From assembly GCA_965219535.1 (NCBI GenBank), contig CBDCNV010000002.1, forward strand, positions 1,230,001 to 1,262,000: DNA of 32,000 nt, read 5' to 3'. A program made the translations under genes and the position numbers. Below the pieces are notes generated by a model. That model was not told where the DNA came from. It saw only the letters and a program-made list of their open reading frames with translations, and made no database searches. Below are positions 2,930 to 32,000 of the stretch, piece by piece (within the stretch, counting starts at the first letter, position 1; each line of letters opens with the position of its first letter). This stretch comes from Opitutales bacterium (lineage in GTDB: Bacteria > Verrucomicrobiota > Verrucomicrobiia > Opitutales > PNEW01).

Positions 2930-3032
2930 TGCCATGGGTCAAAACGTCAAAAGGTATTACTGCTCTGATGCGTCATTTAAAGAAAGATTAATCCCATTCT
3001 AAGATCGCATTTATATTCTAATCGTCTTCAAC

Positions 3033-3056
3033 TTTTTGACATTTTGACATTTTGAC
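3033..3056. repeat. Octamer short tandem repeat (NTTTTGAC)x3
   Basis: tttttgac attttgac attttgac, read directly. It lies between the convergent ends of the transporter gene and the FAH gene. Confidence 0.9.
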
Positions 3057-3063
3057 TAATCTC

Positions 3064-6041: not shown

Positions 6042-6229
6042 CTTCGTCTTCGTCTGTCTCTTCGTCTTCGTCCAGCAAATAAATAGACATTTTTGATTAA
6101 TAATTATTATACCTAAGGTGGAGCGGGCTGTCCCTAGCACGCTTCTTCAATTACAACTGAATCAAACGCGCTGGGACAGCGCGTTCCAACATGATACTGT
6201 AGTAAATAACTGCGGGACAAAGACGAAGC
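6042..6229. repeat. Composite hairpin module M1: (CTTCGT)n array - A element - inverted (ACGAAG) remnant
   Basis: cttcgt cttcgt ctgtct cttcgt cttcgt at 6042-6071, the A element at 6117-6190, and agacgaag at 6221-6228. It lies between convergent gene ends. Confidence 0.7.
6117..6190 (+). repeat. A-family palindromic element (copy A1, slightly degenerate right arm)
   Basis: ggtggagcgggctgtccctagcacgc - loop - aacgcgctgggacagcgcgttccaac. It starts 90 nt downstream of the stop at 6027. Confidence 0.85.
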
Positions 6230-6254: not shown

Positions 6255-7427
6255 TCACGCCCGGTTTCCATCTCCCCATGCTGAGCTGAGGGGTTCACCC
6301 TCGAGAAAGCGATTCGGCCGGAGAGCACGGATATCTATTTGCGGTGTGTCGCCGGCAATAATGTCGGCAAGACATTCACCGATAGGAGGTGAAAGTTTGA
6401 AGCAATGACCGCAGCCGCCAAAAAAAGCATAATACCCTTCGAGACCGGGTTCCGCCCCGACCAGGGGATGCCAGTCGTCGGTGATAGTGTAGATTGATGC
6501 CCATCCGCGTACATAGCTTGCCTTGCGAAGGGCGGGTATCCGCTTAAATAACACAGCTTCAATTCGAGCGCGTGAATCTTCGTCAAGGTTTGGGTCGTAC
6601 TCGTCGATATTGAGGGGTTCGATCTCTTTGGGCCAACCGAGACCGGCTAAAATCTCATCTCTGCCGTTCGGGCGAAGATACATTCTTAGTTCGGAGTCTG
6701 AAAGGACCGGAATAAGACCGAAGTCAGCAGGTGTTTTCAGGATCATGTCTGTTTCCCTGCTCCAGCGTATGGAGTTGTTTATGCCTGCCATAAATCCAAC
6801 TTGTCGACCCCAGGGTCCGGCTGCGTTCACGATAACTTTTGCCTCGATCGTTTCACCAGTCTCGAGAACGACTCCGCTTACGCGATCACCTTGAAGTCGA
6901 ATCTCGCTGACGCCAACTCCTTCGTAAGCTTTCAGTCTCCACTCCGCTGCCCGTTCGACGAGCGAGCGGGTCGTTTTCACCGGATTGGCATACCCTGATC
7001 GACGCTCGTATAATCCTCCGACGACACCGTCGAGATCAATTTGTGGTGCGAGTTCACTAATCACTCCCGTCGAAATATTTTCGATTTCGACACCGTATTT
7101 CTTCTGCATCTCAAGGACGTGTTTCCCGGGTGCAGCATTTTTTTCACCAAAAACCGTGAGAAATCCCACCTGTTGAAACCCGCAATCCCCTCCGAGTTCT
7201 TCACGGTCATTTTCAAACATCTGTACCGCGCGCCAGGCAAGTTGGACTGTTACCGGGTTGGAGTAGTAAGTCCGGACATGTGCTGCCGAGTGACCGGTGC
7301 TGACAGCAGCCAGGTTCCGCTTTTCAAATAACAGTATTTTACCAAAACCTTTTTTCGCGAGGAAATGTCCGATACTGGCTCCCATAATGCCACCGCCAAT
7401 CACTACTGCATCGGCTGTATTCTCCAT
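6255..7427 (-). CDS. FAD-dependent oxidoreductase, DAO / sarcosine-oxidase-beta-like family
   Basis: 390 aa. The N-terminal dinucleotide-binding motif is VVIGGGIMGASIGHFLAKKG...LFEK. Its ATG lies 1 nt after the stop of the upstream hydantoinase A gene, so it is the third gene of the operon. Confidence 0.85.
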   Translation of the reverse strand: MENTADAVVIGGGIMGASIGHFLAKKGFGKILLFEKRNLAAVSTGHSAAHVRTYYSNPVTVQLAWRAVQMFENDREELGGDCGFQQVGFLTVFGEKNAAPGKHVLEMQKKYGVEIENISTGVISELAPQIDLDGVVGGLYERRSGYANPVKTTRSLVERAAEWRLKAYEGVGVSEIRLQGDRVSGVVLETGETIEAKVIVNAAGPWGRQVGFMAGINNSIRWSRETDMILKTPADFGLIPVLSDSELRMYLRPNGRDEILAGLGWPKEIEPLNIDEYDPNLDEDSRARIEAVLFKRIPALRKASYVRGWASIYTITDDWHPLVGAEPGLEGYYAFFGGCGHCFKLSPPIGECLADIIAGDTPQIDIRALRPNRFLEGEPLSSAWGDGNRA

Positions 7428-9513: not shown

Positions 9514-11285
9514 CGTGCTTCTTGCGATTTTTGAATTTCTTCGCGCAACTTCCTAGTTCCACTTTCATCGACTTCTCGTCGGTCGATAGCGATGACCACA
9601 CCGTATACTTCGCGGGCGCGCTGCGCGCTGACTTTACCATCGATAACATCCTCGAGCACCGCGAGGGGGTTGCGTTCGAGTGGATTGCCATACCCGCCAC
9701 CGCCGGGTGTCTTATAACTGATCGTGTCGTTGGCATTGAGGTTAAGAGTAATTTTGGACGGTAGTTCTTTTTGATCTCCCTCTGGATTTTGCGTGTAAGT
9801 GGAGGGTTGTCCACTCTGACCTCCGAACAAGCCCCAGGGTCCTTTCTTACGGTGGTCCGCGATGATTGTAAATGTCGCTTCGTGATTGGGGAACTGCCAA
9901 TCGCGTCGGAGGCCCAGCCCGCCGCGAAATTTACCTGCGCCTTCCGAGTCGGGAACCAACTCGTAGCGTGTGATGCGCATAGGGTAGTTGTTTTCCGTTT
10001 CCTCAATCGCCGAGTTCTCCGTGTTCTGGATATGAGGTTGTATGGCGTCGAGGCCGTCTTTGGTCGGTCGTCCACCGTAACCGCCCGCAAGGGTTTCCAT
10101 GAAAGTATAGTAATCACCTGAGCGCGGATCAACTCCACCGCACCCCATGTTACAAACCATACTTTTGCTGCAGGCGACGACCTTCTCCGGGATTGCAGCC
10201 GAAAATGCCTTGAAGCCGAGATCGACAAGGCGCAGGCATATATCGTTTCCGCCGACAACACCCGCGGGATGCAGCGCGTTTACAACTGTTCCTTCGGGGG
10301 CGTGGACATCTATTTGTGAATAAAACCCCGCGTTTACCGGAACATCAGAATCAATCAAACACTTCACTACATAGGATACGCCGGAATAGGAATAAGTTAA
10401 ATTAGCATTCATCGGTGAGGGGCGCTGCTTATCGGATCCGGTCAGGTCAAAGCTCACCCTTCCATCTTTAACCTCTGCTTGCATGACGAGTTTGACTGGT
10501 TGATCGGTAATGCCGTCATCGTCCATTTCACCTTCAGCGCAATATTTTCCCTCCGGTAGTTTTAAAATCTCACTCTTTGTCCACCGTTGGGTATAGCCTA
10601 TCAGTTCATCGGTAAAACTGAAAATCGCTTTTTCACCAAATCGTTCGAGGATCTCAAAGACACGCTTTTGACCCAGCATAGTCGAGGCGACTTGAGCGCG
10701 CAGGTCACCAGCCATTTGCTTGGGAGACCGGATGTTGGCGACGATCAAGTTAAAGACGTTATCAATAATTTTTCCTTCGCGAAGAATCTGTGTTGAGGGA
10801 ATGATGATACCCTCTTGATATATATCGGTTGAAAGGCACAATCCGCCCGGAGCCATGCCGCCTATATCAACATGGTGAGCTACCGCCGCCGTGTACCCCG
10901 TCAGTCTGTTCTTATAGAACAAGGGCACAATGATCGCGATGTCGTTCAGATGCATGGCGCCGTTGTGGGAATCATTCATCGCGATTCCATCACCAGGTGA
11001 CAACTTCTCTGCACCGTATTGACTTACCGCTGCCGGTATCATGCGTGTCATCGATGCTAAATGAATAGGTTGCGTAAAAGCCTGGGCAACGACGCGTAAC
11101 TTATCATCGTAGATCGCACAGGAATAATCTGCTCTCGTCTTGATGTTTGTTGAGTAAGCAGTTTTGCGTAATGCCGCGCTCATTTCTTCCGCCGCCGCGT
11201 TAAACGCGCTCCGCATGACTTCAAACTCGATCGGATCCATGCGCAGTCCTCTCGTCGTATTCATTGAGTCTGATTTTTTCGGCAT
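9510..11285 (-). CDS. Hydantoinase B/oxoprolinase family, B-type subunit
   Basis: 591 aa. DPIEFEVMRSAFNAAAEEMSAALRKTAYSTNIKTRADYSCAIYD is the typical N-terminal signature of this family. It is the first gene of the minus-strand operon. Confidence 0.9.
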   Translation of the reverse strand: MPKKSDSMNTTRGLRMDPIEFEVMRSAFNAAAEEMSAALRKTAYSTNIKTRADYSCAIYDDKLRVVAQAFTQPIHLASMTRMIPAAVSQYGAEKLSPGDGIAMNDSHNGAMHLNDIAIIVPLFYKNRLTGYTAAVAHHVDIGGMAPGGLCLSTDIYQEGIIIPSTQILREGKIIDNVFNLIVANIRSPKQMAGDLRAQVASTMLGQKRVFEILERFGEKAIFSFTDELIGYTQRWTKSEILKLPEGKYCAEGEMDDDGITDQPVKLVMQAEVKDGRVSFDLTGSDKQRPSPMNANLTYSYSGVSYVVKCLIDSDVPVNAGFYSQIDVHAPEGTVVNALHPAGVVGGNDICLRLVDLGFKAFSAAIPEKVVACSKSMVCNMGCGGVDPRSGDYYTFMETLAGGYGGRPTKDGLDAIQPHIQNTENSAIEETENNYPMRITRYELVPDSEGAGKFRGGLGLRRDWQFPNHEATFTIIADHRKKGPWGLFGGQSGQPSTYTQNPEGDQKELPSKITLNLNANDTISYKTPGGGGYGNPLERNPLAVLEDVIDGKVSAQRAREVYGVVIAIDRREVDESGTRKLREEIQKSQEAR

Positions 11286-11469: not shown

Positions 11470-11583
11470 GGTGGAGCGGGCTGCCTGACGGCCATTGCCT
11501 AACACTGCACAGCGACGGCTGTTCCCTAGCACGCTTCTTCAATTACATCATTCTTAAACGCGCTGGGGACAGCCCGTTCCACC
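11470..11583 (+). repeat. A-family palindromic element carrying a B-element insertion in its left arm (copy A2)
   Basis: ggtggagcgggctg[cctgacggccattgcctaacactgcacagcgacggctgt]tccctagcacgc - loop - aaacgcgctggggacagcccgttccacc. A degenerate fragment follows at about 11611-11643. Confidence 0.85.
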
Positions 11584-11643
11584 TTATTGCTTAACACATA
11601 AAACCTAAAACCCCTAGCACGCCATTACGGAGTGACGGCGGCT

Positions 11644-11670
11644 AATACCTAAAACTTAAAACCTAACACT
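11644..11670. repeat. Heptamer array (AAYACCT/AAAACTT type) x4
   Basis: aatacct aaaactt aaaacct aacactt, immediately 3' of the P1 stop hairpin. It is paralogous to 15554-15580 and appears inverted at 31111-31138. Confidence 0.8.
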
Positions 11671-11706
11671 TCTCGAAGAGATCACTCGATAGTGATCTCT
11701 TCGAGA
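11671..11706 (-). terminator. Perfect 16-bp-stem hairpin spanning the stop codon of the Ig-like protein gene (candidate terminator or mRNA 3' stabiliser)
   Basis: tctcgaagagatcact-cgat-agtgatctcttcgaga. The right arm on the + strand encodes the last codons (LEEIT) and the stop lies inside the structure. The downstream mRNA is only moderately U-rich (agtgttaggttttaagtttt). Confidence 0.45.
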
Positions 11707-13907
11707 ACAACCTCGATCGCATCGCCATCTTCATTGGCGAAGGTGGCATCGATACTCAGTGTCGGCTGAGGAGTCTCATCAGACTTGAAATTGTTCTGCG
11801 AGATCAGGGTCTCAAACCCGGTCGTCGTCGAACCACTTTCAGCGACGACGACTGCAGCACCGTTCGTCTGCAAGAGGTCACCACCGGTGATCCGCAAGCC
11901 GGGGTTGCCTGCTGCTACGGTAAAGGAGCCTTCACCGAAGAGAATGTGAGGTACTGCATCGCCATCAGCATCGATATCACCGATCGTTAAGCGTACCGCG
12001 ATCGGCACGCCGCGCGCATCAAAGCCGACATTGCCCGTGCTTCCACTGAACACAGCATTCGATAACTGCACCCCTCCCAGTCCCGTGGAGTTGACTACTT
12101 CCACGAGGGCCACATCGGCCTGGGCGTCATAGACCTGTCCTTCGGGGAACAGTGCCTGGTTAAAGGCGTTGATCCTGCCCACCGTGAAAATGCTGAAGAA
12201 GGTATTGGCGTCCGCTCCATCGATGACCACGCTCGGTTTTCCCGTTACATATTCGACGGCCTGGTTGTAGCGTGGGGGGACAGCTGGCGGCAGGAAGGTG
12301 GCTGGATCGAGGGTTACGGTAAAGGTACCGTTACCAGAAAATTCTACCTGCACAATGTCCTCGTTTTCGTCCATGAAGGAAACGCGGGTGATCTGTCCCG
12401 GTTTGGCTTGGAGTTGGACGGACTCTCCGGTGAGTAATATCTGGTCGAAGACGTTGCCGTTGGCATGCTGAATGTCTTCACCGGCGATATCTCCTGAGCC
12501 GTCAAGCACGAGGGGAATGGAAGGCGCTGATACGGTAACGACCGCGGTATCGCTGTCCGCTGTCCCACCGGTATTGGTAATCTGTACCCAGAAACTTGTG
12601 CTCGCGGTGAGCGCGCCCGTGTCTAAAGTTCCGGTCGTCGCGCCAGCGACGGGAGCAGCGATGTCACCGCTGTTACCGGTATACCACTGGTAAGTGAGAT
12701 CGTCGCCGCTGGCTGTGACGGACAAGCTAGCCGATGCTCCGGATGCGACTTCCTGGCTTGCCGGCTGCGTCGTGATAGAAGGAGCATCAGCGGGTGGGGG
12801 ACCTTCGGTTCCCGTGCCCGGGGCACCGATCGGGGTAAACCCAAAGTCGTCGAATGAAGTACGACTGAAATTAGGATTGATATCGGGGTTATCCTTCAAG
12901 ACCAACCTGCTAATGCCACCCGGGGCACCTAATTCATCTGCATTAATCGTTATAAAAGTGGGTTTGAACTCAGGGACAAGACTCCCTTCTAGATTCGTAA
13001 AAGTAGCGAGTAAATTATCGTTCGTATCGTAGACTTCGATTGAGCCATCGGGATCGTTCTGGCCTGATGAAACTGTGTGAGCTGCGAACGTATCTATTTC
13101 ATAAGCCGGGGTTTCAAAGGTTATGGTTGCTTCCTCGCCATTAAATATTCCATAAGAAGTAGACTGCGAGCGCACATAACTGCTACCATCTGAAAATGAA
13201 ACTATTATAGATCCTCCTTCAAAAGTAGCAGTATTTGGTGAAGTCCCAATGACCAAAGTTCCTCCCAATCCTTCACCCGCGCCAAATTCAGTAAAAGTCT
13301 CGTAAACCGTGTTGTTTGAGGGGAAGTCGGTCAGGGTGAATCCGAGGTCGTCGATCACGAGTTTTCCCGTAACATTTAGAAACTTCACTTCCCTTATCCC
13401 GTTAAGGAAATTAAAATCATCTTCATCCTGAAAAAAGCCACTGTCTGCGACAAAGCTGTATAAGGGGGGATTAGCGCCAGGGCTGATATTTGTTGGCAGT
13501 CCTTCGATAATACCTTCGTCGCCAATGACTGTATTAATTCTAGCGTCTGAGGAGAGTTGCTCACCGGTATTGATTTCTCCTCTTATCTCAAATTTGCCAG
13601 CGCCCGTGTTCTCGCCCGCATAAAATTCGAGAAATTGAATCCCCCTGTTGGAGACAATCCTTCCCTCCTGGCCTGGCCCCAGGGTTAAAGCCTTCGTTCC
13701 CGAATGTAACTGCGCTGGATCCTCTAAAGTTTCCACCGTGAAACCGACGAGCGTAACCACGTTTGGCTCCACACCGATGAAGATCGTCCCTTCACCGCTT
13801 ACGTTTTCGAAATCAGTGAAAATCTCGAGGTCTTGAGGCAGGGCGATGAGAAGAACGGGGGATATGACTGAAACAATGAAGAAGACGAGCGATTTTTTTA
13901 GTATCAT
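11682..13907 (-). CDS. Secreted protein with bacterial Ig-like domain (paralogue P1)
   Basis: I place the start at ATG 13907 (MILKKSLVFFIVSVISPVLLIALPQ, a signal-peptide-like start). This matches the start of the paralogue at 17827 rather than the tracked 13976. It has an Ig-like module, ITTQPASQEVASGASASLSVTASGDDLTYQWYTGNSGD...SFWVQITNTGGTADSDTAVVTV, and a C-terminal region with IGDIDADGD (Ca-binding-like). Confidence 0.8.
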   Translation of the reverse strand: MILKKSLVFFIVSVISPVLLIALPQDLEIFTDFENVSGEGTIFIGVEPNVVTLVGFTVETLEDPAQLHSGTKALTLGPGQEGRIVSNRGIQFLEFYAGENTGAGKFEIRGEINTGEQLSSDARINTVIGDEGIIEGLPTNISPGANPPLYSFVADSGFFQDEDDFNFLNGIREVKFLNVTGKLVIDDLGFTLTDFPSNNTVYETFTEFGAGEGLGGTLVIGTSPNTATFEGGSIIVSFSDGSSYVRSQSTSYGIFNGEEATITFETPAYEIDTFAAHTVSSGQNDPDGSIEVYDTNDNLLATFTNLEGSLVPEFKPTFITINADELGAPGGISRLVLKDNPDINPNFSRTSFDDFGFTPIGAPGTGTEGPPPADAPSITTQPASQEVASGASASLSVTASGDDLTYQWYTGNSGDIAAPVAGATTGTLDTGALTASTSFWVQITNTGGTADSDTAVVTVSAPSIPLVLDGSGDIAGEDIQHANGNVFDQILLTGESVQLQAKPGQITRVSFMDENEDIVQVEFSGNGTFTVTLDPATFLPPAVPPRYNQAVEYVTGKPSVVIDGADANTFFSIFTVGRINAFNQALFPEGQVYDAQADVALVEVVNSTGLGGVQLSNAVFSGSTGNVGFDARGVPIAVRLTIGDIDADGDAVPHILFGEGSFTVAAGNPGLRITGGDLLQTNGAAVVVAESGSTTTGFETLISQNNFKSDETPQPTLSIDATFANEDGDAIEVVLEEITIE

Positions 13908-14136
13908 GGTGATCTTTTTAATAGGTTGAATCTCAAAAGGGATGAAATTTCTAAAAAGAGATATATAGGGCGTCAAATGTTATTCTTCTTTTAATGAAAT
14001 CTTGATGGATAGGTTAAGAATACGACGCTATCAAAAATATTTAAGTATATCATAAGCAGTTACTTAATCATAGTGAACAGCATTCAGTGATCTTTATTCA
14101 GTTGAAAGGAACGATAATCAGCAAACGGGTGTAATT

Positions 14137-15542: not shown

Positions 15543-15553
15543 CCTCTATGTAT

Positions 15554-15580
15554 AACACCTAAAACTTAACACCTAACACT
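15554..15580. repeat. Heptamer array (AACACCT/AAAACTT) x4
   Basis: aacacct aaaactt aacacct aacactt. It is paralogous to 11644-11670. Confidence 0.8.
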
Positions 15581-15581
15581 T

Positions 15582-15615
15582 ATCGAAGAGATCACTCAAT
15601 AGTGATCTCCTCGGT
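15582..15615 (-). terminator. Stop-codon-spanning hairpin of paralogue P2 (15-bp stem, one mismatch and one G:U)
   Basis: atcgaagagatcact-caat-agtgatctcctcggt. It is the counterpart of 11671-11706. Confidence 0.4.
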
Positions 15616-17827
15616 AACAACCTCGATCGCATCCCCGTCTTCATTGGCAAAGGTGGCATCGATACTCAGTGTCGGCTGAGGCGTTTCGTCAGACTTGAAG
15701 TTGTTCTGGGTGATCAGGGTTTCAAACCCGGTCGTTGTCGATCCACTCTCCGCAACGACGACTGCGGCACCGTTCGTCTGCAAGAGGTCACCACCGGTGA
15801 TCCTTAACCCGGGGTTACCGGCGGCTACGGTAAAGGAGCCTTCACCGAAGAGAATGTGAGGTACTGCATCGCCATCAGCATCGATATCACCGATCGTTAA
15901 GCGTACTGCGATCGGTACTCCGCGCGCGTCGACACCAACCTTGCCCGTGCTTCCACTGAACACAGCATTCGATAACTGTACCCCTCCCAGTCCCGTGGAG
16001 TTGACTACTTCCACGAGGGCCACATCGGCCTGGGCGTCATAGACCTGTCCTTCGGGGAACAGCGCCTGGTTAAAGGCGTTGATCCTGCCCACCGTGAAGA
16101 TGCTGAAGAAGGTATTAGCGTCCGCTCCATCGATGACCACGCTCGGCTTGCCCGTCACATACTCGACGGCCTGATTGTAGCGTGGTGGGGTATGGCCGGT
16201 GGTAGGAAGGTGGCCGGATCGAGGGTTACAGTAAAGGTCCCGTTGCCTGAGAACTCTACCTGCACAATGTCCTCGTTTTCGTCCATGAAGGATACGCGGG
16301 TGATCTGTCCCGGTTTGGCCTGGAGTTGGACGGACTCTCCGGTGAGTAATATCTGGTCGAAGACGTTGCCGTTGGCATGTTGAATGTCTTCACCGGCGAT
16401 ATCTCCTGAGCCGTCGAGAACGAGGGGAATGGAAGGCGCTGATACGGTAACGACCGCGGTATCGCTGTCCGCTGTCCCACCGGCATTGGTAATCTGTACC
16501 CAGAAACTTGTGCTCGCGGTGAGCGCGCCCGTGTCTAAAGTTCCAGCCGTCGCGCCGGCGACAGGAGCAGCGGTGTCACCGCTGTTGCCGGTGTACCACT
16601 GGTAGGTAAGATCGTCGCCGGTTGCCGCAACGGACAAGCTAGCCGATGCTCCGGATGCGACCTCCTGGCTTGCTGGCTGCGTGGTGATAGAAGGAGCAGT
16701 GGCGGGTGGGGGACCTTCGGAACCGGTGCCCGGGGCGCCGATCGGTGTAAAACCAAAATCGTCAATCGAAGTACGGCCGGACGGATTTACATCACCATCT
16801 ATCAGGACTATCCTGCCAATGCCGCCTGGAGCTCCTAATTCAGCCGCATTAATCCTTGTAAAACCGGGTTTGAAATCAGAGTTAATATTGCTCTCTAAAT
16901 TATCAACCGTAAAGATTAAGTTGTCGTTTGTATCATAGACTTCGATAAAGCCATCAGGATTGATGCCTTCTTTAGGTGCAGTACTCTGAGAGGCGAATGT
17001 ATCAATTTCATAAGCCGGAGTTTCAAAAGTGATGGTTGCCTGCTCACCATCAAATATACCAAACGCAGTGGATGACGAGCGCACATAATCGGTACCATCA
17101 GAAAACTCGACAATAATTGATCCCCCTTCAAACGTAGCAGTATTCGGCGAAGTCCCAATGACCAGCGGTTCGTCCTGACCTGCACCAGGACTGAATTCAT
17201 CAAAATTGCTGTAAACCGTGTTATTCGAGGGATAGTCGGTCAGGGTGAATCCCAGGTCGTCGATCACGAGTTTTCCCGTAACATTAAAAAACTTCACTTC
17301 TCTTATCCCACTGAGGAAATCAAAATCGGTTGTATCAAAAAAACTACCGCTGTCGGCGACAAAGCTGTATAAAGTGGGGTTAGCACCAGGGCTGATATTT
17401 GCCGGCAGTCCTTCGATAATACCGCAATCTCCACAGGTACCTCCGAGTACGATGTTAACTCTTCTGTCGGAAGCCAGAGATGTACCCGTATTAATTTCTC
17501 CTCTTAGCTCAAATTTGCCCCCGCCTGTCGTTTCACCCGCATAAAATTCAAGAAATTGAATCCCCCTGTTGGAGACAATCCTTCCCTCCTGTCCCGGCCC
17601 CAGGTTAAAGCCTTCGTTCCCGAATGTAACTGCGCTGGATCCTCTAAAGTTTCCACCGTGAAACCGACGAGCGTAACCACGTTTGGCTCCACACCGATGA
17701 AGATCGTCCCTTCACCGCTTACGTTTTCGAAATCAGTGAAAATCTCGAGGTCTTGAGGCAGGGCGATGAGAAGAACGGGCGATAAGACTGAGGCAATGAT
17801 GAATGCGAGCGATTTTTTTAATAACAT
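15592..17827 (-). pseudogene. Secreted Ig-like-domain protein, paralogue P2, interrupted by two frameshifts (or two sequencing errors)
   Basis: Three tracked ORFs (17827-17504, 17297-16155, 16158-15592) align colinearly with P1. Break 1 is at 17603-17604, where P1 has GGG (13682-13684) and P2 has GG. Break 2 is a net +2 nt patch at about 16181-16213. The frame between 17600 and 17297 stays open after correcting break 1, as checked by hand near 17297-17340. Confidence 0.75.
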
Positions 17828-18034
17828 ACTGAGCTTTTAATAGATTGAATTTCAAAAGGGATGCAATTTGTAAAAATAGATAGATAAAGCGTCAATTATT
17901 AAACTGATTTTAATGAAATGTTTATGGATTAATAAAAGATACGATGCCATCATATAGTCGTAAGTATATCATGAGTAGTGACTTGAATTATTATGGTTAG
18001 TGTTACTCGTCAGGTGTTAAGTTTTAAGCCGACA

Positions 18035-18138
18035 GGTGGAACGCGGTGCCTGACCGCCATAGCCTTGGCGACGGTTGTTCCCTACCGCGTTTAGAATGTA
18101 GTAATTGAAGAAGCGTGCTAGGGACAGCCCGCTCCACC
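18035..18138 (-). repeat. A-family palindromic element with B insertion (copy A3, inverted orientation)
   Basis: ggtggaacgcggtg[cctgaccgccatagccttggcgacggttg]ttccctaccgcg - loop - gaagcgtgctagggacagcccgctccacc. It ends 68 nt downstream of the stop of the 18206-18436 gene. Confidence 0.85.
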
Positions 18139-18436: not shown

Positions 18437-18551
18437 AGTTTATAATGTTTGATGTTTAAAAGAGTCGAAACGACCAAAAAATTATATTCTTCTTTACCAC
18501 ATACTCACGTATCCCTTTTGACTTTCGAATCCATTGGATCAACTATTGCTT

Positions 18552-18600
18552 CACTGTTCACTGTTCACTGTTCACTGTTTACTGTTCACTTCTCACTTCC
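18552..18600. repeat. Heptamer array (CACTGTT)x7, last units degenerate
   Basis: cactgtt x4, tactgtt, cacttct, cacttcc. It ends 1 nt from the stop codon of the CocE-like gene. The tracked ORF 18449..18637 is a translation of it. Confidence 0.9.
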
Positions 18601-18601
18601 C

Positions 18602-20518
18602 CTATCGCCTCGGTATAACGGGCAGCACAATATGTGAGGGATGCGTACTATCCAGGTGAACAGTATTTTGCGCTATCACTTTATGCGTATGTCGTCCCAT
18701 GGGTTCACCTGTATTCGGATTTATGTCTAAGCGAGGAAAATTACTGCTCGATATATCGAACCTGATTCGATGACCGGTCTTGAACAGGTTGCTCGTCGCG
18801 TGAAGCGTAATCATAATAGGATAAATTTGTCCCGGCACCATCATCTCCGGTTCGGTCCAAGAATTGCGGTACCGACACCTCAGTATTGTGTCGCTTAGGT
18901 TCATTCGGTACCCATCGGGATAGTCTTCATTCGGAGGATAAACATCGATGAGTTTTGCCGTAAAGTCGGTGTCAATCGCAGTCGACGAAATCCAAAGTTT
19001 GACCGTTGCTTGTCCGGTAACCTCGGTGTCCTCTTCCAGTATTTCAGTTTGAAATGCCAGCACGTCGGAGCGTTTGTCGAGAGGAAGGTACGGGGGATTG
19101 ACCCCAAGCATCCATTCGGCTTCAACCTGATCGACAGGGCCCCATGTGACAATATGTCGTCCATGCCTGGCGTAAAAGGCGGACCGCTTGCCGAAAGATG
19201 GTACTTCCTTAAAGCCACCCGGTGGAGGAACAACCTCGGTGAGATGCGCGAGACCGCCACCCGCTGACGGAACCGGGTTATCCGGGTCGTATTCGAAGGT
19301 GATCGATTCTTTTTCTGATTGCGGCTTTTTTTCGGTCAAACCGAATTCAGATGTCAAAAAAAGATTTCGCTCTTCAGTCCGTGCAATCGGCCACTCCGCT
19401 TCATTGCGCCATTGTCCCCCGTGATCGATAAGCCCATCTGACGTTTTACGACCTGAACCACCGCCCATAACGAAAATCTCAACTGGCGAATCGTTTTCGA
19501 TCCCGTTGTTTTCATCCCTTAACCAATGATCAAACCATCGCAATCTTATCTCGCTGTGTTTCGGGTACCCAACCATCGCGTCTGTTCCAAACTCGACATC
19601 ACCCAGTGACGAGGTTTTGACCCGCATCGTTCCGTGTCCCCAGGGACCGATCAGCAGGCGGGATGGATTTTTGTTACGCGCTATCATCGCCTCAAAGTAT
19701 CCTGTAGAGCCGTCGATGAACGGGTCAAACCAACCTGCGGTGATCAAACAGGGAATATCCGAATGGCGATCCCAGTATGGAGTCTGGTCGTTGCATTCCT
19801 GCGCCCACCATTCATCGTACTCACCTCGGTAATAATAATTAAACAAGGTTTCTTCAAGGTGCGGTGCTACTGAAAGCGGAATCTCCCCTTTTTTGAATGG
19901 CATATTATTGATTACAGACCGTGCATTAATCAAACCGTCAGCCAGGGTCCGAATCGTTCCCTCATCAGCGGGAACTTCATGGGCATCAAACGCGTGGTTG
20001 TAAATCGCGGTGTACATGTCCAGGGCCATGGCGCCGCCCTCGCGGGCTTCGTGTAAGTATATATTTGTCGGCCCCTGTTCGGGGCAGATCGTTACCAGGT
20101 GTGGGGGGCGATGCAACGCCGCCTGGGTTTGAACAATTGACCGGTGTGAGCTGCCCATCATCCCCACGCGTTCATCCGACCAGGATTGAGCTGCGATCCA
20201 TTCGACAGCATCATACCCGTCATCACCGTCCCAGGGATTGCAGGTATGGTAGTAACGGCCGTCACCCTCAGACTTATACCTGGAGCGTAGGTCCTGGAGA
20301 ATGAATACGTAGCCTTGTTCGACGTATTGTACTGGCACGCCATCCCATTCAATCGCCGACTTATCATAGGAAGTTCGCACCAATATTGTCGGCCACTTAC
20401 CGTCTAATCTCAATCCATCCGTTCCGGCGGGAAAGTAGATATCCGTCGCCAAGCGGACCCCATCCCGCATCGGGACCATCACGTCTGATTTTAAAAAAAC
20501 TTTGTAAGGAACAGCCAT
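18602..20518 (-). CDS. CocE/NonD family hydrolase (X-Pro dipeptidyl-peptidase S15-like alpha/beta hydrolase with C-terminal jelly-roll domain)
   Basis: 638 aa. VMVPMRDGVRLATDIYFPAG...WPTILVRTSYDK is the typical family N-terminus. The nucleophile-elbow region is VGMMGSSHRS. Confidence 0.85.
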   Translation of the reverse strand: MAVPYKVFLKSDVMVPMRDGVRLATDIYFPAGTDGLRLDGKWPTILVRTSYDKSAIEWDGVPVQYVEQGYVFILQDLRSRYKSEGDGRYYHTCNPWDGDDGYDAVEWIAAQSWSDERVGMMGSSHRSIVQTQAALHRPPHLVTICPEQGPTNIYLHEAREGGAMALDMYTAIYNHAFDAHEVPADEGTIRTLADGLINARSVINNMPFKKGEIPLSVAPHLEETLFNYYYRGEYDEWWAQECNDQTPYWDRHSDIPCLITAGWFDPFIDGSTGYFEAMIARNKNPSRLLIGPWGHGTMRVKTSSLGDVEFGTDAMVGYPKHSEIRLRWFDHWLRDENNGIENDSPVEIFVMGGGSGRKTSDGLIDHGGQWRNEAEWPIARTEERNLFLTSEFGLTEKKPQSEKESITFEYDPDNPVPSAGGGLAHLTEVVPPPGGFKEVPSFGKRSAFYARHGRHIVTWGPVDQVEAEWMLGVNPPYLPLDKRSDVLAFQTEILEEDTEVTGQATVKLWISSTAIDTDFTAKLIDVYPPNEDYPDGYRMNLSDTILRCRYRNSWTEPEMMVPGQIYPIMITLHATSNLFKTGHRIRFDISSSNFPRLDINPNTGEPMGRHTHKVIAQNTVHLDSTHPSHIVLPVIPRR

Positions 20519-20605
20519 GAATTTTTATTAAGATAAGTTGGTTCCCTTCGACTACGCTCAGGGCAAGCAGGGTTCAGGAAGAAAGATATACTAATGACAG
20601 ATACC

Positions 20606-20652
20606 AGGGTTCAGGGTTCAGGGTTCAGGGTTCAGGGTTCAGGGTTCAGGGT
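20606..20652. repeat. Heptamer array (AGGGTTC)x6.7
   Basis: Read directly. The same unit recurs at 22069-22103 and 24265-24283. Confidence 0.95.
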
Positions 20653-20853
20653 GGAAGATGTCGGGCTACGCCCTCGGTACAGGGTTCAACAACCTTTGCT
20701 ATACTAGCATTAACAAAAAATGGATGAACGGTGAAATACTTTTTAAACGTATATGCTGAAAATAGGCTAGTTTTTATTCGTTCAAATTAAATTCTCTAAA
20801 ACTATTCTTGTGTTTCTTGTGCCTTATGTGGCTATCTCTTAATTCCGCAATCG
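20634..20853. repeat. Repeated divergent-promoter block R1 (paralogous to 24265-24503)
   Basis: Three colinear shared blocks with 24265-24503. Block 1 is 20634-20693 vs 24265-24324 (agggttcagggtggaagatgtcgggctacgccctcggtacagggttca.caac, one difference). Block 2 is 20725-20752 vs 24356-24383 (tgaac.gtgaaatactttttaa.cgtat). Block 3 is 20805-20840 vs 24439-24473 (cttgtgt.tcttgtgcctt.tgtggctatctc). Confidence 0.8.
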
Positions 20854-22060: not shown

Positions 22061-22068
22061 AAGATTCG

Positions 22069-22103
22069 GGGGTTCAGGGTTCAGGGTTCGGGGTTCAGAG
22101 GTT
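22069..22103. repeat. Heptamer array (RGGGTTC)x5, degenerate
   Basis: ggggttc agggttc agggttc ggggttc agaggtt, starting 9 nt after the stop at 22060. Confidence 0.85.
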
Positions 22104-22142: not shown

Positions 22143-22171
22143 GGTGGAGCGGGCTGTCCCTAGCACGCTTC
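22143..22171 (+). repeat. A-family element, left arm only (copy A4)
   Basis: ggtggagcgggctgtccctagcacgcttc, then unrelated sequence. Confidence 0.8.
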
Positions 22172-22258
22172 TGATCTCTACCGAATGACAATATGAGATT
22201 GCCCTACTTTATTATTTATCTCTTGAGGAAGCCGACGGATAAAGGTTAGATTTAACCA

Positions 22259-24247: not shown

Positions 24248-24264
24248 CTGTCAACCTGCGGTTG

Positions 24265-24283
24265 AGGGTTCAGGGTTCAGGGT
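24265..24283. repeat. Heptamer array (AGGGTTC)x2.7, start of repeated block R2 (24265-24503)
   Basis: agggttc agggttc agggt, followed by the same ggaagatgtcgggctacgccctcggtacagggttca seen at 20650-20688. Confidence 0.9.
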
Positions 24284-24475
24284 GGAAGATGTCGGGCTAC
24301 GCCCTCGGTACAGGGTTCAGCAACTGCTGCTATTCGAGCTATAGCATTTAAAGTGTGAACAGTGAAATACTTTTTAATCGTATTGATCTTAAAATATTCT
24401 GGGTTGTATTTTATCAATATAAATTTCTTTAATTCTTATCTTGTGTATCTTGTGCCTTTTGTGGCTATCTCTCTA

Positions 24476-25596: not shown

Positions 25597-25653
25597 AACG
25601 CGCTAGGGACCAACCGTCGCCAAGGCTATGGCGGGCAGGCAGCGCGTTCCACC
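25597..25653 (+). repeat. A-family element, right arm with B insertion (copy A5; left arm missing)
   Basis: aacgcgctaggga[ccaaccgtcgccaaggctatggcgggcagg]cagcgcgttccacc, starting 34 nt after the stop at 25563. Confidence 0.8.
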
Positions 25654-25731
25654 AATCTCACTTACTAATTATTGGATAAATCCGCATTTCCGCTTCATCG
25701 CATACCCACATTCTCACATCAACGCATTTCC

Positions 25732-25763
25732 CTTTTGACCTTTTGACTTTTTGACCTTTTGAC
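25732..25763. repeat. Octamer array (YTTTTGAC)x4
   Basis: cttttgac cttttgac tttttgac cttttgac, ending 15 nt before ATG 25779. Confidence 0.95.
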
Positions 25764-25778
25764 TCTATTCCATCGAAA

Positions 25779-26570: not shown

Positions 26571-26651
26571 AGCGCGGTATTATTACGTAGGATTTTATGA
26601 ATTAAAATCTTCGTCTTCGACCCCGTTTACTTCATAAATATTGCAACCCAG

Positions 26652-26726
26652 GGTGGAGCGGGCTGTCCCTAGCACGCTTCTTGTATTACGACTCGCTCTA
26701 ACGCGCTGGGGACAACGCGTTCCACC
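26652..26726 (+). repeat. A-family palindromic element, no B insertion (copy A6, the empty site)
   Basis: ggtggagcgggctgtccctagcacgc - ttcttgtattacgactcgctct - aacgcgctggggacaacgcgttccacc. Confidence 0.9.
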
Positions 26727-26776
26727 ATAATATTATAGTTAATAATTGAATAGACGAAGACGGGTCTGCGTCCCTT

Positions 26777-27012
26777 TGTCATTGCGAGGAGCGAAGCGAC
26801 GAAGCAATCCAGGGGAATGTATGTTGCAAAATTATTGTCCCAGGATGCTAGGCTTCGCTCAGTTGACAATTGCCGTTCTACAATATTCATTGAGCAACTC
26901 ATGTTTTTTAACGGAGACGGGTATGTGTACCCACAATGACTATTTCCCTGGAATGGAAGATGTCGCTGCGCTCGGTAGCCGCGGTCGGCTTTTAACCTCC
27001 CTCGCAATGACA
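26777..27012. repeat. MITE-like element, D family, longest copy (236 bp)
   Basis: tgtcattgcgaggagcgaagcgacgaagcaatccagg ... cctccctcgcaatgaca. Together with 14 upstream nt it is flanked by a 12-bp direct repeat AATAGACGAAGA (26749-26760 and 27013-27024). Confidence 0.8.
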
Positions 27013-27123: not shown

Positions 27124-28215
27124 ATGGCAACGGATACCATAGCTGCATCTGATTTCGCTGACACGAAAAAGGGTTTGGAAAAAGGATTAGATTGGTACCA
27201 GTGTCCGATCGACAGGAAGGTGCTCAATAAATTGTCGGAGAAAAACGACTGGCAACCCTTTCTTCATATTGTCGCTCAGCTTAGTTTCTCGACCGCTACC
27301 GGCGCATTTGCATTCTGGGCATTCCACCACCTGTCATGGCCCTGGATAGTTCTAGCGGTTTATTTTCACTGCTCTTTTTATAAATTTTTTGGTCACGGCA
27401 CGGGAGGCCATGAGTTATCGCACAAGACGGTATTCAAAACTCAAGCCTTGAACGAGTTTTTCATTCGCATCGTTGGTTTTCTGACCTATTTCAACTATAT
27501 CTGGTTTCGGCACAGTCACGTTAAGCACCATCAATTTACTGTTCACCATGAGCTCGACATGGAAGTCGAGCTTCCACAACAATATCCATGGTACCAAGTT
27601 ATCGGGGCATTTACCTTCAGCATTCGTGACTTCAATCGAATCTTACCCAGGCTTTTTCGAAACGCGTTCGGTCGCCGCCGCGAGGTTATTCTCAAATCAG
27701 TTTGGGAACAGAGAATTACCCCGGAGACAAAGCCGGAAGCTTTGAAAAGAATGGTAAACTTTTCGAGAATCATCCTCGGTGGTCATTTAGCGCTCGCTAT
27801 TGTCTTTATTGCTACGGGAAATTGGATTCTCTTGTTCCTTGTTACCTTTGCGCCATTCATCGCGATGTGGTTTGTTGTTCTTACGCATTTGCCTCAGCAT
27901 AAAGGGATGAAGCCGGATGTCGCGGATTGGAGGCAAAGTACCAGGACCTATCTCGCAGGGCCCATTGTGCGGTTTTTTTACTGGAATATGAATTATCATG
28001 TGGAACATCACATGTATCCGGCTGTCCCGTTTTACCATCTACCTAAGTTGCGCAAGGCGATCGAAGATGACCTCCCCATCGCAACAAAAGGTCTCGTTGC
28101 CACGTGGGTAGATATATTCAAAACGCTCAGGCGTCAGAATAAGGATTCGGACTATTATGCCGAGCTAGTTTATCCAGAGAAAACAGGGTCCGGTGAGCTG
28201 CCAATTGCGGTTTGA
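27124..28215 (+). CDS. Membrane fatty-acid-desaturase-like di-iron oxygenase (paralogue 1)
   Basis: 363 aa. Three His boxes are present: HELSH, HSHVKHH and HVEHHMYP. There are hydrophobic segments before box 1 and between boxes 2 and 3. Confidence 0.8.
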   Translation: MATDTIAASDFADTKKGLEKGLDWYQCPIDRKVLNKLSEKNDWQPFLHIVAQLSFSTATGAFAFWAFHHLSWPWIVLAVYFHCSFYKFFGHGTGGHELSHKTVFKTQALNEFFIRIVGFLTYFNYIWFRHSHVKHHQFTVHHELDMEVELPQQYPWYQVIGAFTFSIRDFNRILPRLFRNAFGRRREVILKSVWEQRITPETKPEALKRMVNFSRIILGGHLALAIVFIATGNWILLFLVTFAPFIAMWFVVLTHLPQHKGMKPDVADWRQSTRTYLAGPIVRFFYWNMNYHVEHHMYPAVPFYHLPKLRKAIEDDLPIATKGLVATWVDIFKTLRRQNKDSDYYAELVYPEKTGSGELPIAV

Positions 28216-28226
28216 TTTTTAGAATT

Positions 28227-28423
28227 AAAATCTTTGTCTGCGTTTACTTCATAAATATTGCAACCCAGGGTGGAGCGGGCTGTCCCTAGCACGCTTCTTG
28301 TATTACGACTCGCTCTAACGCGCTAGGGATCAGCCGTCGCCAAGGCTATGTCGGACAGGCAGCGCGTTCCACCATAATATTATAGTTAATAATTGAATAG
28401 ACGAAGACGAGGACGAAGATTTA
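28227..28423. repeat. Composite hairpin module M3: inverted hexamer termini enclosing A element with B insertion
   Basis: The left terminus is aaaatctttgtctgcg and the right terminus is agacgaagacgaggacgaagattt. The core is A7. Confidence 0.8.
28269..28373 (+). repeat. A-family palindromic element with B insertion in right arm (copy A7, the filled site)
   Basis: It is identical to A6 through ...ctctaacgcgct. It then reads aggga[tcagccgtcgccaaggctatgtcggacagg]cagcgcgttccacc. Confidence 0.9.
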
Positions 28424-28492
28424 ACACTGATTTCTAATTATATTTCTCAATAAAATCTTTACTCAAAACCGCCCGCACTTATTTTCAAAAAT

Positions 28493-29623: not shown

Positions 29624-29696
29624 GGTGGAACGGGCTGTCCCTAGCGCGTTGAAGGATTGTAATTAAAGAAGCGTGCTAGGGACAGCCCGCTCCACC
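29624..29696 (-). repeat. A-family palindromic element (copy A8, inverted orientation)
   Basis: ggtggaacgggctgtccctagcgcgtt - loop - gaagcgtgctagggacagcccgctccacc. Confidence 0.9.
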
Positions 29697-29712: not shown

Positions 29713-29770
29713 GGAGGTCCACGCGGTGCCTGTCGGCCATAGCCCATAGGGCGACGGCTGATCGTGGCCG
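29713..29770 (-). repeat. Single degenerate A arm carrying a B element (copy A9)
   Basis: ggaggtccacgcggtg[cctgtcggccatagcccatagggcgacggctg]atcgtggcc. Confidence 0.7.
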
Positions 29771-29898
29771 CTGAGAAGCTTGAATATATAATTTTATTTA
29801 ATCAATTGACGAAGAGGCAGACGCAGACGAAGACGAAGATGATGAATTAACGCCAAAGTTTTATCTGAATTGTGAATAATCTTTATTCAAATACCTCT

Positions 29899-31138: not shown

Positions 31139-31186
31139 ATTAGATTCTAAATAAAATGGCTATTGTCATTAATAGATTTTATTAAT

Positions 31187-31261
31187 TGTCATTGCGCCTG
31201 CCGGCCATAGCCTTGACGACGGATGAAGAATCATGCAATTGCGGGAGCCGCGGCAATCCAG
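31187..31261. repeat. Partial D-family element interrupted by a B element (second copy at 31510-31584)
   Basis: tgtcattgcg[cctgccggccatagccttgacgacggatg]aagaatcatgcaattgcgggagccgcggcaatccag. Confidence 0.7.
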
Positions 31262-31349
31262 AAAGTTATAATACCCTTACTCAGAACGATTAACCCTAAG
31301 ATGTAAACCTAACACGGTCTTGTGCGCCTTAGCGTGTCAGTACTCTTCC

Positions 31350-31381
31350 CTTTTGACATTTTGACGTTTTGACCTTTTGAC
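31350..31381. repeat. Octamer array (NTTTTGAC)x4 (copy 1 of the duplication)
   Basis: cttttgac attttgac gttttgac cttttgac. Confidence 0.95.
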
Positions 31382-31672
31382 TAAAGTTAATCGAAAATGA
31401 GCTCTGACGATCAAACCACCTACCCCGATGAAGAGGCGCGCTGCCGATTCTGGACGGAGCATATGGATCGCGGCTACGATGGCTATTGTCATTAATAGAT
31501 TTTATTAATTGTCATTGCGCCTGCCGGCCATAGCCTTGACGACGGATGAAGAATCATGCAATTGCGGGAGCCGCGGCAATCCAGAAAGTTATAATACCCT
31601 TACTCAGAACGATTAACCCTAAGATGTAAACCTAACACGGTCTTGTGCGCCTTAGCGTGTCAGTACTCTTCC

Positions 31673-31704
31673 CTTTTGACATTTTGACGTTTTGACCTTT
31701 TGAC
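31673..31704. repeat. Octamer array (NTTTTGAC)x4 (copy 2), ending 15 nt before ATG 31720
   Basis: Identical to 31350-31381. Confidence 0.95.
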
Positions 31705-31719
31705 TAAAGTTAATCGAAA

Positions 31720-32000
31720 ATGAGCTCTGACGATCAAACCACCTACCCCGATGAAGAGGCGCGCTGCCGATTCTGGACGGAGCATATGGATCGCGGCTAC
31801 GAGCTGGTTCAGTCTATGGCAAAGTACGAGGTCAATGAGTGTGGCGAGGGCGTGGTTTCAATTCCGGAAGCAGCTGAGAAAGCAGGGGTAAAAATGCTTT
31901 TTTCTGAAACTAAAATTGCCGGTAACCTGGATCGGATATATGTTATCCGTGAGAGTATCATGCCGGACCTCCTGGCGATCGCGCTTGATATGAAAGAGCG
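31720..32000 (+). CDS. Hypothetical protein, 5' fragment (runs off the window)
   Basis: It is not in the ORF track because no stop is reached. ATG 31720 opens a frame that stays open to nt 32000: MSSDDQTTYPDEEARCRFWTEHMDRGYELVQSMAKYEVNECGEGVVSIPEAAEKAGVKMLFSETKIAGNLDRIYVIRESIMPDLLAIALDMKE. It shares its leader (ATCGAAAATG) and octamer array with the gene at 25779. I cannot assign a family. Confidence 0.6.
   Translation, partial: MSSDDQTTYPDEEARCRFWTEHMDRGYELVQSMAKYEVNECGEGVVSIPEAAEKAGVKMLFSETKIAGNLDRIYVIRESIMPDLLAIALDMKE

Follow-up and report, generated by a model that had tools for sequence, protein, structure and literature searches.

A hairpin of about 30 nucleotides (nt), called B here, was analysed in a stretch of 32,000 nt from an Opitutales bacterium (assembly GCA_965219535.1, contig CBDCNV010000002.1, positions 1,230,001 to 1,262,000 of the forward strand), which is referred to as the window. 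B was found within the arms of another repeat, element A, at one bond and in one orientation. It was shown that B was gained or lost as an exact unit, without target duplication. B is probably a mobile element of exceptionally small size and wide distribution. In its full form, our interpretation is that B is a discrete, non-autonomous, ultra-small mobile element, a hairpin like the cyanobacterial small dispersed repeats (SDRs), which is moved in trans via a single-stranded intermediate, and we regard this as likely.

The window contained exactly seven copies of B, with lengths of 30-39 nt, and this number was the same in a descriptor scan and in a search with a covariance model with its filters off. 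By chance, 0 copies of the B motif were expected in the window, and 0.65 per shuffled window at the loosest descriptor setting. The copies were as follows.

28330..28359, minus strand: B copy of 30 nt, CCTGTCCGACATAGCCTTGGCGACGGCTGA, in the right arm of A 28269-28373; exact match, 50.2 bits with the covariance model
11484..11522, plus strand: B2, a 39-nt subfamily with the long apical loop TAACACTGCACA, in the left arm of A 11470-11583; 26.2 bits
18049..18078, plus strand: B copy in the left arm of A 18035-18138, whose right arm is empty; covariance-model match
25610..25639, minus strand: B copy inside the solitary A arm 25597-25653; 52.1 bits
29729..29761, plus strand: B copy of 33 nt with the loop CATAG, in a different host hairpin at about 29713-29775; covariance-model match
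31197..31226, plus strand: B copy in a D-like element, directly 3' of GTCATTGCG; covariance-model match
31520..31549, plus strand: B copy of a second D+B, the product of a 323-bp tandem duplication

A sequence-only reading of the window had already pointed to these inserts. The copies were present where it had placed them, with positions shifted by 1-3 nt. It had assigned the copies at 11483, 18047, 25611 and 29729 to A arms, which held for the first three. The copy at 29729 was located in a small hairpin repeat, GGAGGNCCACGCGGTG^TCGTGGCC, which is not an A arm and which recurs with B on other contigs. The interruption of a D-family element was confirmed at 31197-31226. The B2 subfamily was also found in A arms of two other sequences (L131 and L148), and a supposed nested insert within the B copy at 11484 was ruled out, since the same long-loop subfamily recurs there.

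Element A is about 75 nt long and is a REPIN-like doublet of two inverted hairpin arms of about 22 nt each. The arms read GGTGGAGCGGGCTGTCCCTAGCACGC and, on the opposite strand, GGTGGAACGCGCTGTCCCTAGCGCG. A single arm forms its own small hairpin, AACGCGCT-GTCCCT-AGCGCGTT, and B sat within the loop in the folds. The A elements of the window, and the two modules that carry A, were as follows.

28269..28373: A, left arm empty, right arm filled with B
29624..29696: A, both arms empty; the L119 ortholog has C+B (54 nt) in the left arm
6117..6190: A, both arms empty
11470-11583: A, left arm with B2
18035-18138: A, left arm filled, right arm empty
22143..22172, plus strand: solitary A arm, empty
25597-25653: solitary A arm, filled with B
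26652-26726: A, both arms empty, within module 1
26624..26762, plus strand: module 1, a 139-nt unit with both A arms empty, the empty-site comparator
28241..28409, plus strand: module 2, a 139-nt unit with A, plus B; the whole module is missing at the orthologous site in L119 and L120

The two modules gave a direct comparison of a filled and an empty site. After removal of 28330-28359, they were identical at 137 of 139 positions, and the 30-nt B was the sole difference in length. The near identity proposed earlier was therefore borne out, with identical runs of 84 nt (left) and 47 nt (right) in place of the 85 and 34 first counted. In the four A arms of the window that carry it, B followed GGTGGANCGNG(C/G)TG and preceded TCCC, with its CCTG end towards the outer end of the arm. 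The insertion bond in A arms was always the G^T of GCTG^TCCC. A census of 25 arms was made in the window lineage (the window, L119, L014, L033 and L038), in which 15 arms were empty, 7 held B and 3 held C+B. Filled and empty sites were thus both present, as proposed, and position and orientation were constant in all 10 filled arms. The same result was obtained in a scan of JGI metagenomes for A arms, which gave 78 contigs with about 150 arms, 135 of them empty and about 10-15 filled. B was at one bond and in one orientation in every filled case, and no insertions were found elsewhere in the arm. This meant that free variation of the insertion position, which had been named as a result that would speak against insertion at a specific site, was not observed.

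Filled and empty sites differed by exactly the B unit, which rules out a target-site duplication. A direct repeat GCTG/CAGC had been described as bracketing the insert. This did not hold, as the 3' GCTG of the apparent bracket was part of the covarying stem of B itself. A further element, C, of 24 nt (CGATTCGGCTGAGCTCATCGAAGT), was located in L119 at 1335-1358 (minus strand) and 12686-12709 (plus strand), and in L014 at 249-272 and 2677-2700 (both minus strand). Since C was always immediately 5' of B within A arms, C+B behaves as a 54-nt unit. C was not found in the window or in the 78 metagenome contigs.

The orthologous sites in relatives of the window were compared, as presence or absence at such sites had been set beforehand as a test. 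The syntenic loci L119 and L120 were found through homologues of the desaturase encoded at 27124-28215. Its protein identity to the window was 97% in L119, which comes from another sample, and 90% in L120. Two A elements were polymorphic between the window and L119. In the case of A 29624-29696, both arms were empty in the window, and L119 had the same A in the same flanks with the 54-nt C+B at GCTG^TCCC. In the case of A 18035-18138, B occupied the left arm of the window copy and the right arm of the L119 copy, and the opposite arm was empty in each. The B copy at 29729 was common to the window and L119 (12832-12864), with a single change that converts a G·T pair to A-T. No A and no B were found in L120 across 15 kb of synteny. 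These results indicated that occupancy changes within the time over which strains diverge to 90-97% identity in the desaturase.

The sequence of B was conserved in a manner that reflects its fold. The consensus was CCTG-TCCGCC-ATA-GCC-(TT, CGAAG, ...)-GGC-GAC-GGCGGA, with the general form CCTG-N6-ATA-GCC-loop-GGC-GAC-N6'. It consists of a 5' CCTG, an outer stem of 6 bp, a 3x3 internal loop with ATA opposite GAC, an inner stem of 3-4 bp (GCC/GGC) and an apical loop, which is variable. Almost no variation was seen in CCTG or in the ATA/GAC internal loop, and the size was 30-33 nt, apart from the one 39-nt subfamily. Covariation was counted on copies of equal length and on a model-fitted alignment. 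Among 30 distinct 30-nt copies, 92.6% of cells were paired, a value as high as this was reached in none of 500 shuffles, and slid controls gave 15-61%. Among 104 model hits (72 distinct), the value was 94.6%, again reached in none of 500 shuffles, and slid controls gave 34-54%. Compensatory changes were observed at three pairs: the first pair (UA 30, CG 21, UG 7, AU 2, GC 2), the third pair (CG 47, GU 7, AU 4, GC 1) and one inner pair (CG 66, UA 5). On the CCTG strand, G·T wobbles (29) outnumbered A·C wobbles (6). This asymmetry indicated that it is the CCTG strand that folds, as single-stranded DNA or as RNA.

B was widely distributed across bacteria. One genome per species was scanned with the pattern CCTGNCNGNCATWGCC-N2-6-GRCGACGG, and at least 117 loci were found, where about 5 were expected by chance in the whole collection (an estimate for a 20-base pattern with five gap lengths). 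Among the matches listed, about 86 were hairpins of the B type. About 20 matches that share CCTGGCTGCCATAGCCGATGACGGCGACGG were excluded as a coding look-alike, formed by the ilvC codons for VAVIGYGSQG on the reverse strand; these include L006, L013, L016, L020, L031, L049 and L050. By record title, the carriers belonged to at least 12 phyla. Those among the matches listed were as follows.

Verrucomicrobiota, Planctomycetota, Kiritimatiellota, Acidobacteriota, Pseudomonadota and Desulfobacterota
Patescibacteria, Dependentiae, Bacteroidota, Armatimonadota, Sumerlaeota and Rifleibacteriota

A closed Opitutales chromosome (OY829953.1) carried A with B at the same site, and one gene of the window was 82% identical to a gene of another Opitutales metagenome-assembled genome (MAG). 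Both results point to a verrucomicrobium, and not a cyanobacterium, as the host. An identical 33-nt B was shared by Bradyrhizobium (L029) and a Vicinamibacterales MAG (L021). The records for Bradyrhizobium sp. STM 3809 and Verrucomicrobiaceae bacterium E54 are not labelled as MAGs, so these may be cultured isolates. Mobile replicons gave little. With the A+B module and the B consensus as queries, B was not found in 72,556 plasmids or 50,697 phage records, which gave only chance partial matches, nor was it found in 200 kb of the Nostoc punctiforme plasmid pNPUN01. Four true B copies were present among 2.9 million viral contigs. One viral contig (L206, about 4290-4360) had an inverted partial B head-to-head with a full B, 5 nt apart. 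The window and a consensus copy gave no meaningful match to B in Rfam at gathering and E-value thresholds. A likeness of the 5' half of B to the 5' end of bacterial 5S rRNA was set aside, as Rfam gave no 5S match at B with E up to 10. No description of B was found in the literature by sequence string or by concept.

The sequence-only reading had seen B as a very small element that targets the hairpin arms of another repeat. The loops of A arms were indeed hit. The targeting was not specific to A, and a search for B outside A found it in other hairpins, heptamer arrays, element D, B itself and genomes without A. In most genomes B was nested in a larger, genome-specific repeat. Tandem heptamer arrays were hit with precise junctions, as GCCCCA(B)TGCCCCAT in L007 and TCACCAG(B)TCGCCAG in L078, and also in L021. 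The D hairpin was hit at two positions, one in L029 and the other in L047, L088, L034 and the window. An intact D doublet without B, which came from alphaproteobacterial plasmids, could be aligned over the L029 junction without a break. B was found within B at CCAT^AGCC in L110 (4190-4270) and L004 (3800-3860), and in the loop of a terminator-like hairpin in L032. In the window lineage, the sites outside A were other hairpins, TTCTTG^TGACC and D. Across phyla, G preceded B in 56% of copies, and A/T (90%), G and C followed it. The target preference was weak, G^(A/T)GC across phyla and (Y/G)TG^T in the window lineage, with CTTG^ at several non-A sites. CTTG is the target tetranucleotide of IS91-family elements. 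On the minus strand of L155 (6418-6496), two direct-orientation B copies were located 18 nt apart, each after CTTG. In 20% of copies, a stem of 6 or more contiguous bp could form between the two flanks of B, compared to 4.9% of controls.

A partner gene of B had been looked for, and none was found. In an all-against-all comparison of open reading frames, no protein family was shared within 2.5 kb of 91 B copies; whole genomes were outside this search. B was on the same strand as the flanking genes in 14 cases and on the opposite strand in 13. This lack of orientation bias argued against a cis-regulatory RNA. In the window, all 4 informative B copies were antisense to the flanking genes.

From these results, we infer a route by which B could move. 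Movement would proceed via a single-stranded intermediate of the CCTG strand. An enzyme acting in trans would recognise B by the CCTG tetranucleotide together with the internal loop, and B would then enter, with a weak preference for certain target sequences, the exposed loops of other hairpins, heptamer arrays or further copies of itself. The leading candidate for the mover, on the analogy of REP/RAYT, IS200/IS605 and IS91, is an HUH-type single-strand DNA transposase. An RNA route with reverse transcription would be the alternative, such as has been proposed for the cyanobacterial SDRs. Once in A, some copies were probably spread by transposition of A or by short-tract conversion between arms. 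A broader claim would be that B represents an undescribed, pan-bacterial class of mobile DNA, a single non-coding 30-nt hairpin that invades hairpin loops, heptamer arrays and itself and is moved by a conserved trans-acting activity. We put this forward tentatively, at somewhat below even chances.

Several observations weigh against the interpretation of B as a mobile hairpin. The only two substitutions between the modules flank the B junction at -3 nt and +5 nt (window 26708 and 26715 in module 1, 28325 and 28362 in module 2), and substitutions also clustered near the junction at the polymorphic orthologous arms of L119. This pattern suggests co-conversion from a filled donor arm and not a clean insertion. 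The commonest B variant of the window lineage had a weakened outer stem with 4 of 6 pairs, which would not be expected if movement depends on the stem. A polymorphism alone does not tell gain from precise loss. The carriers were mostly MAGs, and the carrier list of the genome scan is a lower bound (at least 117 loci) and need not be complete for groups such as Nostocaceae. The search near B gave no mobilising enzyme, and the mechanism is proposed by analogy only. As for the flanking substitutions, co-conversion, a target requirement or an excision footprint are all possible, and their clustering near the junction suggests that some A-arm transfers carry a few flanking bases with them, as in conversion or template switching.

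The substitutions would fit a different explanation, in which B entered A once or a few times and was afterwards spread only passively, by A transposition, gene conversion or template switching between arms, so that site and orientation were inherited and not targeted. In addition to the two module substitutions, the filled window arm of A 18035 showed differences to its empty counterpart in L119 at -5, -3 and +7 and matched a variant that is filled elsewhere. B2 always came with the same stem in A arms, and a T at position 28 was common to all B copies of the window lineage. However, the B variant CCTGTCCGACATAGCCTTGGCGACGGCTGA was present in at least five A arm variants, whose differences lie on both sides of the junction and within 3-7 nt of it, and one arm variant hosted several different B variants. 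B of the window lineage also occurred in the unrelated contexts named above, and its hosts in other phyla had no similarity to A. Purely passive spread is therefore considered unlikely, perhaps one chance in several. The same reassortment bears on the possibility that B is an ancestral segment of A that was deleted from the empty copies, with filled and empty A as two old, separate lineages. The combinations of B variant and arm variant are mixed, so filled and empty A copies do not fall into two old lineages, which contradicts this case. It is true that presence and absence alone give no direction of change, and the short CTG/TTG repeats at the borders of B could in principle promote slippage. 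However, CTG slippage would leave one extra base, and none was seen. Empty arms outnumbered filled arms by about 10:1 in the metagenome contigs, either arm of one orthologous A can be filled, and B occurred without A in at least 12 phyla. A was also found without B. Ancestral loss is thus very improbable.

B might also be a structured motif under selection and not a selfish element. It could, for instance, extend a terminator or act as an RNA or DNA hairpin that binds a protein. The near invariance of the unpaired nucleotides across phyla, with covarying stems, would fit such a function, as would the location of some copies on terminator-like hairpins, e.g. in L032. Against it, B showed no strand bias relative to genes (14 same, 13 opposite), no gene association within 2.5 kb and no Rfam family. 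It was present or absent between near-identical strains, its copies decay, and it was nested in other repeats and in B. We consider a selected motif improbable. The source contigs of the window are low-coverage long-read assemblies (names ending in 5x and 2x), and heptamer copy numbers vary between assemblies, which raises the question of an assembly or sequencing artefact or of a chance motif. However, independent ENA, NCBI and JGI assemblies contained B, among them those of the possible isolates Bradyrhizobium sp. STM 3809 and Verrucomicrobiaceae E54. The stems of B covary, and zero motif matches were expected in the window by chance. The probability of an artefact is negligible. On balance, a mobile hairpin moved in trans probably accounts best for the data, in part perhaps with spread between A arms by gene conversion.

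If the broader claim is true, no known mobile element of bacteria would be smaller or more widely distributed than B, and the cyanobacterial SDR phenomenon would be general. To our knowledge, very small mobile repeats are documented only in Nostocaceae, and their mechanism has been open since 2008. This question becomes more testable with a single hairpin that has a fixed signature (CCTG, ATA/GAC) and occurs in many phyla, the conserved signature permits genome-wide phylogenetic profiling for the mover enzyme, and the possible cultured carriers (Bradyrhizobium sp. STM 3809 and Verrucomicrobiaceae bacterium E54) would help testing. For annotation, it matters that intergenic regions, terminators and other repeats are remodelled by nested hairpins, which also yield spurious open reading frames. 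B insertions are strain-level indels and are usable as markers.

Other repeats were observed in the window. A palindromic element E, TTAAAATCTTCGTCTGCGTCTGCCTC ... GAGGCAGACGCAGACGAAGACGAAGA, is older and is the insertion site of the A-bearing modules. It was located in the window at 26598-26623 with 26750-26770 and at 28222-28240 with 28400-28425, in L119 at 11100-11270 and in L120 at 6560-6740. The nesting had four levels, with B in A, A in the module and the module in E. Element D was also present without B.

26778..26813, plus strand: D element without B, GTCATTGCGAGGAGCGAAGCGACGAAGCAATCCAGG

D (GTCATTGCGAGGAGCGAAGCGACGAAGCAATCC) is a cross-phylum hairpin doublet, which was found at this position of the window, in L029 (5455-5570), L047 and L088 and in plasmid hits H71-H79. 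B-free D occurred on Methylosinus, Methylocystis and Novosphingobium plasmids, at 37 places in one record. The window positions 31156-31478 and 31479-31801 formed a perfect 323-bp tandem duplication, which covers D+B as well as the beginning of the Peptidase_M15 gene region. Contig L001, which is otherwise identical, had the unit only once, so the duplication is either very recent or an assembly difference. Tandem heptamers of GGGTTCA (20599-20663, 22062-22098 and 24251-24287), TTTTGAC (3023-3067, 25722-25774 and 31348-31384) and CTGTTCA (18547-18607) were present. These arrays resemble the cyanobacterial short tandemly repeated repetitive (STRR) sequences, and their copy number differed between the window and L001. 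L119 and L120 had more than 20 GGGTTCA units in place of the D+B of the window. A diverged tandem duplication of about 3.9 kb (11643-14065 and 15553-17984, 75-94% identical) contained a 764-aa open reading frame, and its second copy was split into shorter open reading frames. A one-base difference in a G-run was observed between window 25282 and L001 8158, by which an amidohydrolase had 352 aa in the window and 281 + 50 aa in L001. This is probably a long-read homopolymer error in one of the assemblies.

Among known systems, the behaviour of B matches that of the SDRs, where SDR1-8 were compared by description, and B is set apart by its size and distribution. SDR1-8 of Nostocaceae were reportedly shown by Elhai and colleagues in 2008 to be 21-27 nt long and to behave as insertions. 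They are said to occur inside tandem heptamers, minitransposons and their own copies, and to form a hairpin with compensatory changes. B inserted just as precisely into repeats (A arms, D and the heptamer arrays of L007, L078 and L021) and into B (L110 and L004), and its hairpin was also supported by compensatory changes. The likeness to cyanobacterial nested small repeats that was noticed at the outset thus extends to precise insertion, nesting and a covarying hairpin. SDR5 sits between nucleotides 3 and 4 of HIP1 (PMC4390886). In contrast to the SDRs, B is 30-33 nt long, with one 39-nt subfamily, and its sequence is almost unchanged across at least 12 phyla, whereas SDRs have been reported as confined to Nostocaceae (PMC5861425).

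B also shares features with REP elements, in that both are non-coding, multi-copy and single-strand specific and have a tetranucleotide 5' at the foot of an imperfect hairpin (CCTG in B, GTAG in REP). The REP hairpin with its GTAG is acted on by RAYT (TnpA-REP), a tyrosine HUH transposase, which reportedly mobilises REP sequences and REPINs (Nunvar 2010; Bertels and Rainey 2011; Ton-Hoang 2012). REP elements are lineage-specific and vertically inherited with one RAYT gene flanked by repeats, and the proposed mobile unit is a doublet. In the case of B, the sequence was conserved across phyla, as with the identical 33-nt copy in L029 and L021, there was no recurrent flanking gene, and a single hairpin was inserted. 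It is the host element A that resembles a REPIN, with two inverted hairpins. IS200/IS605 and IS91 elements insert without duplication beside a tetranucleotide, and their derivatives still have at least about 100 nt and two different ends. B was similar to them in the absence of a target duplication, in its fixed orientation beside a short target and in the hairpin in one strand, and several non-A targets of the window lineage read CTTG^ as in IS91. However, B is one 30-nt hairpin without two distinct ends, no transposase was seen nearby, and its upstream target was weakly conserved across phyla. A classical miniature inverted-repeat transposable element (MITE), with terminal inverted repeats and a target-site duplication, differs from B, as filled and empty sites of B differed by exactly the B unit. 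An intrinsic terminator or cis-regulatory RNA would keep one orientation to its upstream gene and have a T-run or belong to a described family. It differs from B, which was divided between the same and the opposite strand and had no Rfam match. REP hairpins are reportedly the targets of IS1397, ISKpn1 and ISPpu9/10 (as collected by Tobes and Pareja in 2006). B resembles these elements in that the loop or stem of a palindrome is hit at a fixed position and orientation. It differs from them in that they are full-length elements with their own transposase, most with target duplications.

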